Numbered from the stretch's first letter, positions 11,713-15,835 are shown. The stretch: 64,000 nucleotides of DNA from a bacterium (GCA_021780355.1 JAJXYX010000097.1:1594-65593); one strand, 5' to 3'. Notes: generated by a model from the sequence alone, not told the origin. Numbers and translations are program-made.

Positions 11713-13493
11713 CGTTGTTTTTTATCGAGTATTTCGAAGCGTAGGTAGAGTTGTTCGATTTGTGTTTCTGCAAGGCCGATAGCGGTGCAGATTTCTTGGA
11801 GGCGGGCTGGGTTATTGGCGATGGCTGGGTCTTCGAGTTGTAGGTTGAGTTTTTTTACCTCGTCTTCGCGCGATAAGATGTTGGCTTCGATTTGCTCAAA
11901 TTCCTTTTTTTCGGCATAGGTGAGTTTTGTTTGGGATGGTTTTGGGGGAGATGGGGGAGAGGTTTTGGGGTCTTTGTTTTTTTTGGTGTGAGAGGCGTAA
12001 AAGGACTCCCATTGTGCGAGATCGGCAAAATATTTCATTTGATCTGGCTGGCCGAAGGCGAGAAGCGTATTGCAAAGGCGATCGAGCATGCAGCGGTCGT
12101 GTGTAATGAGGACGACGGCTCCGGGGAAGTCGAGAAGGCTTTCTTCGAGAGCCTCGAGGGTGGGGATGTCGAGATCGTTGGTGGGTTCGTCGAGAAGAAG
12201 AATATCGGCTGGCTGAAGCATCAGATGGGCGATAGAAATGCGGGCTCTTTCGCCGCCGGATAGCTTATCGATCGATAAATCTAATAAATCGGGGGAGAAC
12301 AGAAATCGTTTGCACCAGCCATTTACATGGATTTGTCTTCCGTGGTACGTGACATAATCACCTTTAGGCGAAAGGGCGTCTTTTAACGTGATGTTGGGGG
12401 GGAGTTGGACTCTATGCTGATCGAAATAGACGATTTTCAAATCGTCGGCCCGCTTGATCGTTCCTTGATCAGGCTGGAGCTCTCCTGCGAGCAGGCGAAG
12501 CAGCGTGGTTTTGCCAGAACCGTTCGGCCCCATGAGGCCTATGCGGCTGCCGGGGGAGAGGAGGAGATCGAGGTGTTGGAAGAGGAGTTTTTCGCCGGCC
12601 GCTTTGCTGATGTTTTTTGCGGAGAGGAGTTTTTTCGTTTCCCTTTCTGATGCAACAAAGGCGATTTCGGTTCGTTTGGAGGTGTTTCTGGATTTGACCT
12701 CTGCATGCTCTTGGATGATTTGATGCGCTTCGTCAATTCTCGATTGGGATTTTGTCGTGCGCGCTTTAACTCCCTGGCGAAGCCATTCGGTCTCTCGTCT
12801 CATTTTGGTGGCAAGCGAGCGCTCTTGCTGAAGTTGACCCGAGAGAAACTCTTCTTTTCGAGAGAGAAATTCTGAATAAGGGCCATCGATGGCAAATAAA
12901 CCTTTGGGATAGGCAGGGTTGATCTCTACGATCCGGTTGGCAGCGTGCTGCAAAAAATAACGATCGTGGCTGACGAGAAGATAAGAAGGAGCTTCTCTAG
13001 CTAAAAATTTTTCGAGCCAAAAAATTCCCTCAAGATCGAGATGGTTAGTAGGCTCATCTAAAAACAGAAGATCGGGCTGCAAGATCAGCTCTTTAGCAAG
13101 GCCAAGCCGTTTTTTCCAGCCCCCTGACAGCAGGGCCGCAGAACGTTCATCGCCAGTAAACCCCAATTTACTCAGCCACGTTTCGGCTAGACGCTCTTTT
13201 TCATAGTGGGGCCCCTCTTTTAGAGTATGGATGAGAATGTTGAGAGGAGATTCGTCGGGAAATTCACAGGTTTGAGGAAGATAACCAATTTTCAACCCTC
13301 TTTTGGGCGATAAAATTCCCTCGTTTGCTGTTTCAAGGCCAGCTAAAATCTTGAGTAGAGTCGATTTGCCCGAACCGTTAGGTCCGATGAGGCCAATTCG
13401 GTCTTTTTCAAAGATATGAAGAGAGAGATCTTGAAATAATGTTCTGGTGCTAAAGGATTTACTCAGCGATTGGCAGCTATATAAAAGGCTCAT
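11709..13493 (-). CDS. ABC-F family ATPase (Uup/YheS-like, two nucleotide-binding domains, no membrane domain)
   Basis: 594 aa. Two Walker A motifs (GPNGSGKST; GPNGSGKTT), two signatures (LSGGWKKR; LSGGERAR) and two Walker B motifs (LLFLDEPTNHLD; ILLLDEPTNDLD) are present, plus a C-terminal coiled-coil tail. The start overlaps the upstream ddl-like gene by 4 nt (ATGA). Confidence 0.9.
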   Translation of the reverse strand: MSLLYSCQSLSKSFSTRTLFQDLSLHIFEKDRIGLIGPNGSGKSTLLKILAGLETANEGILSPKRGLKIGYLPQTCEFPDESPLNILIHTLKEGPHYEKERLAETWLSKLGFTGDERSAALLSGGWKKRLGLAKELILQPDLLFLDEPTNHLDLEGIFWLEKFLAREAPSYLLVSHDRYFLQHAANRIVEINPAYPKGLFAIDGPYSEFLSRKEEFLSGQLQQERSLATKMRRETEWLRQGVKARTTKSQSRIDEAHQIIQEHAEVKSRNTSKRTEIAFVASERETKKLLSAKNISKAAGEKLLFQHLDLLLSPGSRIGLMGPNGSGKTTLLRLLAGELQPDQGTIKRADDLKIVYFDQHRVQLPPNITLKDALSPKGDYVTYHGRQIHVNGWCKRFLFSPDLLDLSIDKLSGGERARISIAHLMLQPADILLLDEPTNDLDIPTLEALEESLLDFPGAVVLITHDRCMLDRLCNTLLAFGQPDQMKYFADLAQWESFYASHTKKNKDPKTSPPSPPKPSQTKLTYAEKKEFEQIEANILSREDEVKKLNLQLEDPAIANNPARLQEICTAIGLAETQIEQLYLRFEILDKKQR

Positions 13494-15835
13494 GGGGACT
13501 CGATCAAATGAATTAAGAGTTCTTGGGGTTCGATAGCGGGGGTTTCTGCTAGCGCTTGATGATAGAGGACAGTAGAGGGGGTGAGGGCTGGCAATGTGTT
13601 GGCTTCAATTACGCGGATGGCGCCAGTTTTGCACTCGACAAAAAGATCGAGCCTTGCATAACCTTCAATGCCGAGCGCGCGGGCTACTTTGCATACGTTT
13701 TTCTGGACTTGTTTTCGCATGTCGGCAGGGAGAATGGATTCGGGAGGGGGCGTGATGTTGATCCCGGTTCCTCCTTGAAACTTCTCTTCTACGGAAAGAA
13801 TGTGGTTGAGAGCGAGAGTAAGACTGGGATGAAAGGCTCGATAGTTTCCTTTTTTTTCTAATACGCCAATCGTCATTTCGCACCAGCCAGAAATTTTTTC
13901 ATGATGCAGCTCTGTTTGGAGGGCATACACTCGATCTGTTTCGATAAAGGGTTCTAGTAAGAAATCGGTTTGCTCTTTGCCTGGCATTTCAAGAGGGGCT
14001 CTATGATGGACAAAGAGCTGAGCTGGGGCTTGAGTTTGGCCTTGCAAGCAAAGATTGAGGTAGCAGGCGAGCTCTTTTTGGCTATGTAAACGAACAACTC
14101 CTGTAGAACAGCCGTCTTTTTGCGGTTTGATGAGTAAATCATTCGTATGCCATTGCATGATCGCTTTTTCCCACAAAGCGGCAGCATTTTCTCCGAGGCG
14201 AAAAGCGATTTGGGGCATAGCCAAGATATGAGGGTCTTGCAGCGAGTGGATTTTATTTGCGGTTTCATGTTTATCCATGCATAGCTGCGATGCGATCGAT
14301 TTGGAGCCATTGAAAGGGATTTTTTCTTCTTCGAGCCGCTTTTGAAGAGTTCCGTCTTCGCCAGAACCTCCATGAAGAGCGAGAAAAACAAAAGCTTTGT
14401 TTCTTTTGGCCTCAAGGAGAAACGTCTTCATATCCATAGCTAGAGGAGAAGGCTGCAGAGAGAGAGGAGCCAGTCCTAGCCGGCCTCGAATCTCTGCAAC
14501 GATGGGGTGGGTCTCTTGGCGTAGCTCTCGAGCTTTATGGCAGTGTTCGGACATTTCTTCTACGGTATGATGCAAAGCAAAATCATAGGGAAGCTGCCAG
14601 ATTTTTTCTTGCTGATCCCACAAAAAGGCCGTGGGGTTATATTCAGCGGCTTGAAGCAGTTTAAGCCACACATTTGTGCCGCTGAGTAGAGATACTTGTC
14701 TTTCCGATGTGTTGCCTCCCATCAGAATATACACAGGTTTTTTGTGTAGACTAGATGTAAAACGCTTGGCTAGGCTCGGTTTTTCATAGCGAAGAAGAGT
14801 TTGGTTGAGGACGTATTCGAGAAGATCCGTATGGGATAACCCGATCCGGGCGGCTTGCTGAAAAAGAAAACTATTTTGTTCCATTCCGCTAATCGGATTC
14901 AAATCGGAAAACCGGATAGATCCATCTTGCGCGAGCCAGCCATCGACGCGGATGCATCCTTGGGAGCCAAAGGCATGAAATAGTCTTTCCGCCTCGGTGC
15001 GGATCTTGGCAACAATCGACTGAGGAAATCGGGGTGGACAGTAATAGCGGGTTTGCGGCGAGGGGAGATATTTTTTTCGGTAATTGAAAATACCTTGTTT
15101 TTGGATATCGATTTCTAAAGGAATCAGCGCAACGGCAGCTCCTTCATGCTCCAAAACGCAAACAGTAAATTCAGTATCTTCGCTATAAGGTTCTAAGAGC
15201 AGCTCATGAAATCCCTCTTCCCAAAGCTCTTCTACGATTTTTTGGGCCTCTTCTAAAGAAGAAGCCATGTTAACGCCAATGCTCGATCCAGACATGGTGG
15301 GTTTAATGACAGCGTGTTGGGCGATATGCTTTGTCCAAAAAGTCTCTATCGGCGTATCTTTCTTTTCTATACGAAGAGCCTCAAGCAAGGAGAAGCCATG
15401 CTTTGCAAGCCATTGGCGGGCTTCATATTTGTTGAACATTTTGCGGCATGCAGCGCTCGAGCTCCCAACAAAGGCAATGTTATGATCTTCTAAGAATGCT
15501 TGCAACGTACCATCTTCGCCGTAAGGGCCATGGATCAAGGGAAATACGAGATCTACGTGGAGAAGTTTTTCGATCAGTTCTTCTTGCCGTAACCCCTGTT
15601 TGCACCCCGCCAGCTTAAAATCAAAATCGGAAGGGGTATTGGAGTAGAGCTCTGTCGAAGAGAGTTGGTAGAACAATCCTGTTGGATGGAGATAAAATAG
15701 AGACAAATGAACGGGCAGAGGTTGAAGATGATCCAAGCAAGAGCGGGCAGAATTTAAGGAAATCCCCCTTTCTCGAGAGGGCCCTCCAAAGAGCAGTGCT
15801 ACGCTAAGCCTTTTTAGTGATTGAGAGTGAGTCAT
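13490..15835 (-). CDS. Tandem D-alanine--D-alanine ligase-like protein (two complete ATP-grasp Ddl modules in one 781-aa chain)
   Basis: Module 1 (aa ~10-345): VALLFGGPSRERGISLNSA, FPLIHGPYGEDGTLQAFLE, VIKPTMSGSSIGV, IRVDGWL...SDLNPISGM. Module 2 (aa ~365-780): VYILMGGNTSERQVSLLSG, LALHGGSGEDGTLQKRLEE, LIKPQKDGCSTGV, ARLDLFVECKTGAIRVIEANTLPALT. The first module is not MurC-like, so this is not the chlamydial MurC-Ddl fusion. Confidence 0.8.
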   Translation of the reverse strand: MTHSQSLKRLSVALLFGGPSRERGISLNSARSCLDHLQPLPVHLSLFYLHPTGLFYQLSSTELYSNTPSDFDFKLAGCKQGLRQEELIEKLLHVDLVFPLIHGPYGEDGTLQAFLEDHNIAFVGSSSAACRKMFNKYEARQWLAKHGFSLLEALRIEKKDTPIETFWTKHIAQHAVIKPTMSGSSIGVNMASSLEEAQKIVEELWEEGFHELLLEPYSEDTEFTVCVLEHEGAAVALIPLEIDIQKQGIFNYRKKYLPSPQTRYYCPPRFPQSIVAKIRTEAERLFHAFGSQGCIRVDGWLAQDGSIRFSDLNPISGMEQNSFLFQQAARIGLSHTDLLEYVLNQTLLRYEKPSLAKRFTSSLHKKPVYILMGGNTSERQVSLLSGTNVWLKLLQAAEYNPTAFLWDQQEKIWQLPYDFALHHTVEEMSEHCHKARELRQETHPIVAEIRGRLGLAPLSLQPSPLAMDMKTFLLEAKRNKAFVFLALHGGSGEDGTLQKRLEEEKIPFNGSKSIASQLCMDKHETANKIHSLQDPHILAMPQIAFRLGENAAALWEKAIMQWHTNDLLIKPQKDGCSTGVVRLHSQKELACYLNLCLQGQTQAPAQLFVHHRAPLEMPGKEQTDFLLEPFIETDRVYALQTELHHEKISGWCEMTIGVLEKKGNYRAFHPSLTLALNHILSVEEKFQGGTGINITPPPESILPADMRKQVQKNVCKVARALGIEGYARLDLFVECKTGAIRVIEANTLPALTPSTVLYHQALAETPAIEPQELLIHLIESP

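Follow-up and report, generated by a model that had tools for sequence, protein, structure and literature searches.

The tandem ligase gene and its product

We analysed a 64,000-nt stretch of bacterial DNA (GCA_021780355.1, JAJXYX010000097.1:1594-65593), referred to here as the window and numbered from its first letter, around a gene that encodes two Ddl (D-alanine--D-alanine ligase) modules in one polypeptide. The gene consists of a single open reading frame (ORF) for a protein of 781 residues and is followed on the same strand by a gene for an ABC-F ATPase (Table 1). An earlier note, made from the sequence alone, had reported two full Ddl modules in one chain and a 4-nt overlap with the ABC-F gene. 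Both observations hold, as the Pfam Ddl domain pair is found twice in the ORF and the junction reads ...GAG TCC CCA TGA GCC..., with the stop codon of the ligase gene and the start codon of the ABC-F gene sharing ATGA. The identical 781-residue protein recurs on contigs that were assembled independently, at least 10 in number and including one from the metagenome-assembled genome (MAG) GCA_027457305.1, and the fusion is thus not an assembly artefact. The same fusion architecture is common to more than 250 homologues.

Table 1. Features of the tandem ligase locus, with positions counted from the first letter of the window and residues from the start of the 781-residue protein. AF2, AlphaFold2.
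Feature	Position	Strand	Description
Tandem Ddl-Ddl gene	13490-15835	-	781 aa plus stop; single ORF without interruption; assigned by Pfam/NCBIfam and homologues
N module, residues 1-355	14771-15835	-	Canonical Ddl; intact Glu-Ser-Tyr triad E22/S184/Y256
Inter-module linker, residues ~356-365, AKRFTSSLHK	14741-14770	-	Lies between Pfam matches; no secondary structure at 350-365 in AF2 model
C module, residues 366-781	13493-14740	-	Complete Ddl-type ATP-grasp module; altered triad E378/C576/F686
N module at DdlB active-site positions			E22, H102, K136, K178, S184, E215, E222, K255, Y256, R296, D298, D311 (E270→D), N313, G317, S322
C module at DdlB active-site positions			E378, H488, K522, K570, C576 (S150→C), E628, E653, K685, F686 (Y216→F), R728, D730, E744, N746, A750, T755 (S281→T)
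Codon of D311	14903-14905	-	N module
Codon of C576	14108-14110	-	TGT; C module
Codon of F686	13778-13780	-	TTT; C module
ATGA overlap	13490-13493	-	Ligase stop TGA 13490-13492; ABC-F start ATG 13491-13493
ABC-F ATPase	11709-13493	-	594 aa; two ABC_tran domains, linker, ABC_tran_CTD (Pfam); Uup/EttA-like
Candidate sigma-70-like site, TAGACA-17-CATACT	15864-15892	-	Weak; 29-57 nt 5' of the tandem start codon

Pfam places Dala_Dala_lig_N (PF01820) and Dala_Dala_lig_C (PF07478) each twice on the protein. The N half scores 143.9 and 148.5 bits, and the C half passes on its own, scoring 65 bits (gathering cut-off 34.6) and 60 bits (cut-off 24) when residues ~365-781 are searched alone. In a sequence search of the PDB, the C half alone matches approximately 37 solved Ddl and Van structures, with a best E value of 1.7e-19; its Ddl identity is far beyond chance. 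The N module in addition exceeds the cut-off of the NCBIfam model TIGR01205 (327 bits versus 245.65). Aligned to each other, the two halves of the protein are 25% identical.

Each half carries motifs that are characteristic of the family, namely YSNTPSDFDFK at residues 64-74 of the N module, and DGCSTGV (574-580) and EEKFQGGTGINITPPP (683-698) in the C module. Relative to E. coli DdlB, the C module contains five insertions, at residues 405-423, 432-465, 475-482, 600-617 and 635-652. The Ddl motif strings listed in the earlier note required three small amendments: the second Mg ligand of the N module is an Asp (D311, giving 'D.N') and not a Glu, the N-terminal motif of the C module reads GG.T.E instead of GG.S.E, and the strand motif takes the corrected form KP..(S/D)G(S/C)S.GV.

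Active sites of the two modules

Active-site positions were mapped from E. coli DdlB, the reference being confirmed as identical to PDB 2DLN/1IOV, and residue conservation was scored over 258 family sequences that include plant and Bacteroidia proteins. Equivalents of DdlB K97, K144, E180, E187, K215, R255, D257, E270 and N272 are present in both modules of the window protein, the sole change among ATP, Mg2+ and catalytic residues being a conservative E270→D in the N module. Across the family these positions are at least 97% conserved in both modules, except for the E180 position of the N module, which alternates conservatively (231 Glu, 25 Gln). With all essential ATP-grasp catalytic residues present in each, both halves are complete Ddl modules, as the earlier note had held, and the loss of such residues from one half, which it had also considered, is not observed.

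The two modules differ at the Glu15-Ser150-Tyr216 triad of DdlB, which is kept in the N module and altered in the C module, where the Glu is retained and the Ser and Tyr are replaced. The first module retains Ser in 256 and Tyr in 257 of the 258 sequences. In the second module, Ser150 is replaced by Cys (253/258) and Tyr216 by Phe (255/258), a change confined to this module, where S281→T and L282→V are also fixed. The substitution of Asp for the Mg ligand Glu270 in the N module is found in 254 of the 258 members and constitutes a second family-specific active-site change beside the Cys/Phe pair. At least one relative, the SAP-domain protein P0224, has Val in place of the C-module Phe.

The two halves are equally constrained, pairwise identity averaging 44.3% in the N half and 43.0% in the C half. 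The earlier note had called the second module clearly more divergent; its Cys in DGCSTG and its long insertions are real, but the near-equal identities reveal no relaxed constraint. The identity between N and C halves averages 22.8% (maximum 26.7%) and lies below that of either half to DdlB (27.9% for N, 28.1% for C), whereas identities between the same halves of different phyla are always at least 40%. By these comparisons, the protein is an old fusion that joined two Ddl lineages after they had become distinct and was fixed before the family spread. A degenerate duplicate is ruled out by the conserved catalytic residues together with the equal constraint of the halves.

Predicted structure

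The full 781-residue chain was modelled with AF2 using a 110-sequence alignment. The model has a mean predicted local distance difference test score (pLDDT) of 92.4 and a predicted template-modelling score (pTM) of 0.91. Since pTM is this high for a two-module chain, the model predicts a fixed inter-module arrangement in the form of a rigid pseudo-dimer, and the intramolecular pseudo-dimer suggested in the earlier note is thus plausible as far as the model goes. The lid-like loop bearing K255 and Y256 has a pLDDT of ~81-85, and the corresponding loop with K685 and F686 only 57-73, the confidence minimum being reached on the lid-like loop 680-690. These loops are the weakest regions of the model, which is what would be expected of mobile omega-loops.

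In a Foldseek search of the PDB, every structure returned was a single-module one (Ddl, VanA, VanG or LmDdl2), with target-normalised TM scores of at most 0.90; no solved tandem Ddl structure was found among these fold matches.

Distribution of the tandem family

A search of 5.8 billion proteins yielded over 120 relatives of full length (770-907 aa, 45-81% identity at 98-100% coverage), which are named 'D-alanine--D-alanine ligase' or 'hypothetical' in their sources. In a separate scan, which took a single genome for each species, a full-length relative is encoded by at least 565 genomes, from Chlamydiota, Alpha- and Gammaproteobacteria, Bdellovibrionota, Patescibacteria and Bacteroidia. Locus comparisons were carried out on the best 80 of these (L004-L083), almost all of them MAGs. 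They comprise 19 genomes labelled Chlamydiota and one labelled Verrucomicrobia that falls within the clade of the window, 21 Alphaproteobacteria (Holosporaceae, Rickettsiales and Micavibrio included), 7 Gammaproteobacteria, 6 unclassified Proteobacteria, 14 Patescibacteria, 3 Bdellovibrionota and 9 others or unclassified. This list, which is biased to relatives of a chlamydial query, is concentrated in host-dependent, epibiotic or predatory lineages, namely Chlamydiota, Holosporaceae/Rickettsiales, Micavibrio, Bdellovibrionota, Francisellaceae and many Patescibacteria whose genomes are tiny.

When the C half alone served as query in an exhaustive HMMER search, 275 representative clusters were obtained at E≤1e-30, nearly all of them proteins of ~800 aa with the C module at ~360-790. 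Stand-alone C-type modules were considered and rejected, the ~420-aa matches having the appearance of fragments; the one that was checked, P0121, lies on a 1.3-kb contig and clusters with a 798-aa protein.

Relation to plant DDL and other known ligases

The closest described counterpart is the DDL of plants and moss (Arabidopsis AT3G08840, Physcomitrium PpDDL, BAE45860), represented in our comparison by Coffea XP_027176337.1 (P0204). A search seeded with the Coffea protein returns a conserved angiosperm family of ~950 aa that is often named D-alanine--D-alanine ligase. Residues 10-779 of the window protein align with it at 37% identity over 876 columns (E=2e-176). The two share the order of the modules, the motifs YSNTP(S/A)DFDFK, DGCSTGV and EEKFQGGTGIN(I/L)TPPP, which set the family apart from ordinary Ddl, and the combination of a canonical triad in module 1 with Cys/Phe in module 2. 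The plant protein differs in being nuclear-encoded and in having an N-terminal extension of ~80 residues, presumed to be a transit peptide, as well as additional insertions. The family also includes P0239, a tandem protein from Bacteroidia. Sequence comparison thus places the window protein in the plant-type tandem DDL family.

The two-DDL fusion of plants, where the double enzyme serves chloroplast peptidoglycan, has already been published (PMC9954125). The earlier note had called Ddl-Ddl an arrangement different from MurC-Ddl. The architecture is not new: many related genomes have it annotated as Ddl, it corresponds to the plant fusion, and the window gene is a further bacterial member of an already recognised tandem family. 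The possibility raised in that note, that the architecture might prove to be both annotated and characterised in related genomes, is borne out for annotation, but a characterisation of the bacterial form was not found. Our full-text literature search found no paper on a bacterial tandem or double Ddl, although Sato and Takano may already cover bacterial relatives.

As for the origin of the plant gene, AT3G08840 has been listed as acquired from 'Chlamydiae/CFB bacteria' (PMC3493653), and the moss Ddl was found closest to homologues of the Fibrobacteres-Chlorobi-Bacteroidetes group (PMC9434261). In a crude neighbour-joining tree without support values, the plant clade lies outside both chlamydial clades and groups with one Anaerolineae MAG and with sequences that are unnamed and probably from algae. 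The window protein ranks 174th of ~260 in similarity to the plant protein.

Ordinary Ddl acts as a homodimer. E. coli DdlB (2DLN) and the DdlA-type enzymes (3I12/8EVX) share with the window protein the fold (TM ≤0.90), the catalytic residues and, for each half, the Pfam domains. Here, by contrast, two modules reside in one chain, each ~28% identical to DdlB, and the departures from DdlB consist of E270→D in the N module and of S150→C, Y216→F, S281→T and the five insertions in the C module. The MurC-Ddl protein of Chlamydiaceae is likewise a chlamydial Ddl within a fusion protein, and its Ddl part is homologous, but its partner is a Mur ligase whereas here it is a second Ddl. The distinction from MurC-Ddl drawn in the earlier note therefore stands: the 781-aa protein has no Mur_ligase match in Pfam and scores 152 bits against a cut-off of 1015 with the MurC-Ddl model NF011171, of which only the Ddl part (model positions 450-793) is matched.

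Three of the fold matches, VanA (1E4E), LmDdl2 (1EHI) and VanG (4FU0), resemble the C module in that the Tyr of the lid-loop triad is absent. The window protein nevertheless remains far below the cut-offs of all Van-specific NCBIfam models (VanG, 214.5 bits versus 495; D_ala_D_ser, 190.2 versus 520; D_ala_D_lac, 152.8 versus 550; VanA, 126.2 versus 775). A Cys at the Ser150 position is not known as a feature of D-Ala-D-Lac or D-Ala-D-Ser ligases.

Genomic context and natural fusions in relatives

Unbiased clustering of the neighbours at the 80 loci revealed no universal partner of the tandem gene, and the recurrent partners are all envelope-related. At 10 of the 80 loci, the tandem gene occupies the classical ddl slot of a dcw cluster, murC-murB-X-ftsQ-ftsA(-ftsZ-lpxC), as in L052, L067, L015 and L043; ftsQ-ftsA has a divergent orientation at two of these loci, L073 and L075. 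The alanine racemase gene alr lies directly after the tandem gene or one gene away at 8 loci, 7 of these in Patescibacteria (candidate phyla radiation, CPR). A gene for a class A penicillin-binding protein (PBP) is nearby at 5 loci and immediately downstream in L016 and L020. In Parachlamydiaceae, lnt follows the tandem gene at 7 loci, with lpxC further downstream in 5 of them.

Natural fusions are found with the enzymes on either side of Ddl. The metagenomic protein P0141 (1262 aa) has a [Ddl-Ddl]-MurF arrangement, and P0183 (1638 aa) is [Ddl-Ddl]-MurF-Alr; their MurF parts score 323 and 357 bits with TIGR01143, above its cut-off of 288.6. Because the family is thus fused to the supplier of D-Ala (Alr) and to the consumer of D-Ala-D-Ala (MurF), there is a strong, though indirect, case that it represents the D-Ala-D-Ala ligase of the peptidoglycan precursor pathway. 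Moss genetics lend it further indirect support, as moss ddl knock-outs are described in PMC9954125, which cites Hirano 2016, as unable to dimerise D-Ala and forming macrochloroplasts. This role is well supported by the ddl-slot and alr contexts together with MurF, Alr and PASTA fusions in other phyla, and the suggestion of the earlier note that the enzyme might do something unrelated to peptidoglycan is unlikely on the same grounds.

Further domain combinations occur among the relatives. P0183 contains the entire D-Ala branch of peptidoglycan precursor synthesis in one chain, while its source name is only 'alanine racemase'. P0264 (1262 aa) and P0268 (1285 aa) are Bacteroidia-type tandem DDLs with a C-terminal PASTA domain. 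PASTA domains are usually extracytoplasmic, bind muropeptides or beta-lactams, and occur in PBPs and Ser/Thr kinases, which makes them odd on a cytoplasmic ligase. Six relatives of ~890-907 aa (P0056, P0069, P0070, P0074, P0092 and P0109) carry an N-terminal DNA-binding helix-turn-helix (HTH) domain, HTH_3 (PF01381), on the tandem ligase; some of these are named 'addiction module HigA family antidote' by JGI, probably a mis-annotation driven by the HTH domain. P0212 (1876 aa) and P0224 (1580 aa), which probably come from protists or algae, begin with a SAP domain, typically a eukaryotic DNA- or chromatin-binding motif.

Proposed function

The protein is a chlamydial member of the 'double DDL' family, and we consider it likely that it is a peptidoglycan precursor enzyme making D-alanyl-D-alanine for MurF. 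Each module is in itself a full ATP-grasp ligase of the Ddl type, equipped with a separate ATP/Mg2+ site and a pair of amino-acid subsites. Following established Ddl chemistry, ATP would phosphorylate the carboxylate of the first D-Ala to give D-alanyl phosphate, the amine of the second D-Ala would attack this acyl-phosphate, and the resulting D-Ala-D-Ala would feed MurF in the cytoplasm. The model suggests that the modules pack as a fixed intramolecular pseudo-heterodimer that would stand in for the Ddl homodimer. The N module is canonical; the C module is also catalytically equipped but has lost the hydrogen-bond triad of Ser and Tyr hydroxyls (Cys576/Phe686). As these hydroxyls are replaced, the C module is probably altered rather than dead, with a difference in kinetics, in the closing of the lid or in the acceptors it tolerates. 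Changes in acceptor tolerance or in kinetics, or a redox control via Cys576, are all conceivable for it.

Several points weigh against this reading. The invariant Cys and Phe of the C module are unexplained if both heads simply make D-Ala-D-Ala. That the inter-module interface mimics the Ddl homodimer is an inference. The window itself offers no cell-wall context, and our literature search found no biochemical characterisation of a bacterial tandem form. The tandem enzyme might also be a second ligase beside MurC-Ddl, and not the housekeeping one, MurC-Ddl being common in Chlamydiae (PMC5814848, PMC3935232). In plants, it has been stated that AtDDL or its halves functioning as ligases 'has yet to be shown' (PMC9954125), and angiosperms retain DDL without MurF (PMC4815162), which hints that the family can serve another purpose.

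Of the alternatives, a split in specificity survives best, although we regard it as doubtful. The N module would make D-Ala-D-Ala and the C module, with Cys576 and Phe686, would use another acceptor such as D-Lac or D-Ser, or give some other D-aminoacyl product, so that the enzyme would supply two different termini or products. The essentially invariant Cys and Phe, found in the C module only, and the fixed S281→T and L282→V changes speak for such a split, and two activities that are not redundant would agree with the equal purifying selection seen on both modules. The Y216F mutant of DdlB gains depsipeptide activity, its acceptor specificity being relaxed towards D-lactate; the natural D-Ala-D-Lac ligase of Leuconostoc has Phe at the Tyr216 position, and depsipeptide ligases have Phe or His there. 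The Van-type model scores argue against the split, however, and the equivalents of Glu15 and Arg255 are kept, from which an amino acid as first substrate and standard chemistry would be expected. No lactate dehydrogenase or D,D-dipeptidase partner was found among the conserved neighbours of the 80 loci; vanH/vanX-type partners were absent from the window neighbours and from the recurrent clusters, in a comparison that included no dedicated profile search. Finally, the moss, whose only DDL is of the tandem type, has pentapeptide building blocks that are reported to be the same as in typical Gram-negative bacteria (PMC9434261).

It is less probable still that a single head is catalytic and the other, C or N, is a regulatory or structural pseudo-enzyme that binds nucleotide or substrate and serves mainly as an obligate dimer partner or allosteric sensor. 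Since ordinary Ddl is a homodimer, a fused partner could be purely structural, and the rigid packing in the AF2 model, the five insertions of the C module and its lack of the canonical triad are compatible with this. Pseudo-enzymes, however, normally lose their catalytic residues, whereas the equivalents of K97, K144, E187, K215, R255, D257, E270 and N272 are at least 97% conserved in both modules, a conservation that holds across bacteria and plants and is accompanied by equal overall constraint.

A role outside peptidoglycan, in which a MurC-Ddl-bearing organism would use the tandem enzyme to make a D-amino-acid dipeptide for metabolism or signalling, seems very unlikely. It would account for the absence of peptidoglycan genes from the window and would fit the frequency of MurC-Ddl in Chlamydiae. 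The family-wide context and fusions point instead to the Alr to Ddl to MurF branch, and the Parachlamydiaceae relatives have the gene beside the envelope genes lnt and lpxC.

The overlap with the ABC-F gene, which the earlier note read as translational coupling, proved to be clade-specific synteny. Testing by tblastn of the ABC-F protein against 83 loci located it directly downstream of the tandem gene in only 3 of the 80 related loci (L004-L006), the closest relatives, which form one clade; their ABC-F proteins are 76-93% identical to that of the window. The ATGA overlap is kept in L004 and L005, and L006 has a gap of 233 nt. The ABC-F gene is ruled out as a family-wide partner. It is probably co-transcribed with the tandem gene, and we take the overlap as a sign of co-transcription that became fixed in a single chlamydial clade rather than of a functional module. 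The ABC-F protein shares its two ABC domains, inter-domain linker and ABC_tran_CTD with Uup/EttA-type factors, its best NCBIfam matches, but falls below every equivalog cut-off, among them those for Uup (415.7 bits versus 900), EttA (406.9 versus 599) and resistance ABC-Fs. A functional operon, in which ligase and ABC-F would act together, for example by joining precursor supply to translation or antibiotic protection, is therefore extremely improbable: its overlap is kept in two relatives at 63% and 80% identity, but the pair is restricted to that clade, the neighbours elsewhere are dcw, alr, PBP or lnt genes, and the ABC-F resembles a generic housekeeping factor.

For annotation, we recommend naming the protein as a Ddl of peptidoglycan synthesis and advise against treating its overlap with the ABC-F gene as a functional module. 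The bacterial tandem family, found in at least 565 species of which many are host-dependent or ultra-small, is hereby tied to the plant DDL, whose double-headed design and enzymatic competence are still explicitly left unsettled in the plant literature. A bacterial member would be a far easier model for asking why two equipped Ddl heads, one of them with Cys/Phe, persist. There is a small chance that the Cys/Phe module is a ligase with a function of its own, whose conservation extends from Chlamydiota, CPR and Proteobacteria to eukaryotes with chloroplasts. Many bacteria and plants would then make a second, unrecognised D-aminoacyl product beside D-Ala-D-Ala or, alternatively, possess a redox- or lid-gated second site alongside D-Ala-D-Ala synthesis. 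The retention of both heads under equal selection, from a time before the radiation of the family, would then have an explanation. Ddl is the target of D-cycloserine, and a second, non-canonical active site could alter inhibitor sensitivity in Chlamydia-related bacteria.

Other features of the window

The statement of the earlier note that the tandem gene lies outside a cell-wall cluster holds within the 64-kb window. Searches of the window by tblastn with DdlB, MurB/C, FtsQ/A, Alr and PBP1 gave no second ddl and no cell-wall gene, and representatives of LpxC, Lnt, MreB and RseP gave no match either. The neighbours encode a DoxX protein, a DEAD-box helicase, a GH1 glycosidase, an HtrA-like protease, an M16 peptidase and a C45-family protein. 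A link to D-amino acids through the PF01266 'DAO' gene at 7572-8768 was rejected, this gene being an L-2-hydroxyglutarate oxidase, and the remainder of the window has no D-amino-acid gene.

No promoter or terminator signal in the window exceeds shuffled expectation, and the sigma-70-like site upstream of the tandem gene is not above chance (4 observed versus 5.5 ± 2.4 expected from shuffles). Scans for tRNAs and Rfam families in the window found nothing. A hairpin at 11692-11714, with a 10-bp stem followed by a T-run, separates the convergent ABC-F gene (end at 11709) and the ORF at 10995-11615; it overlaps the stop codon of the ABC-F gene and is a candidate terminator for both genes. That ORF (plus strand, 206 aa), which is syntenic in the close relative L005, and another at 6636-7568 (minus strand, 310 aa) are conserved, and neither matches any Pfam or NCBIfam model.

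In almost all 2-kb bins the plus strand has a positive GC skew, and the cumulative skew climbs steadily to 3.3 over positions 1-64000. Of the 32 ORFs with a length of 250 aa or more, 21 lie on the minus strand, among them an unbroken run from 11.7 to 32 kb, and gene orientation in the window thereby opposes the G-rich strand.

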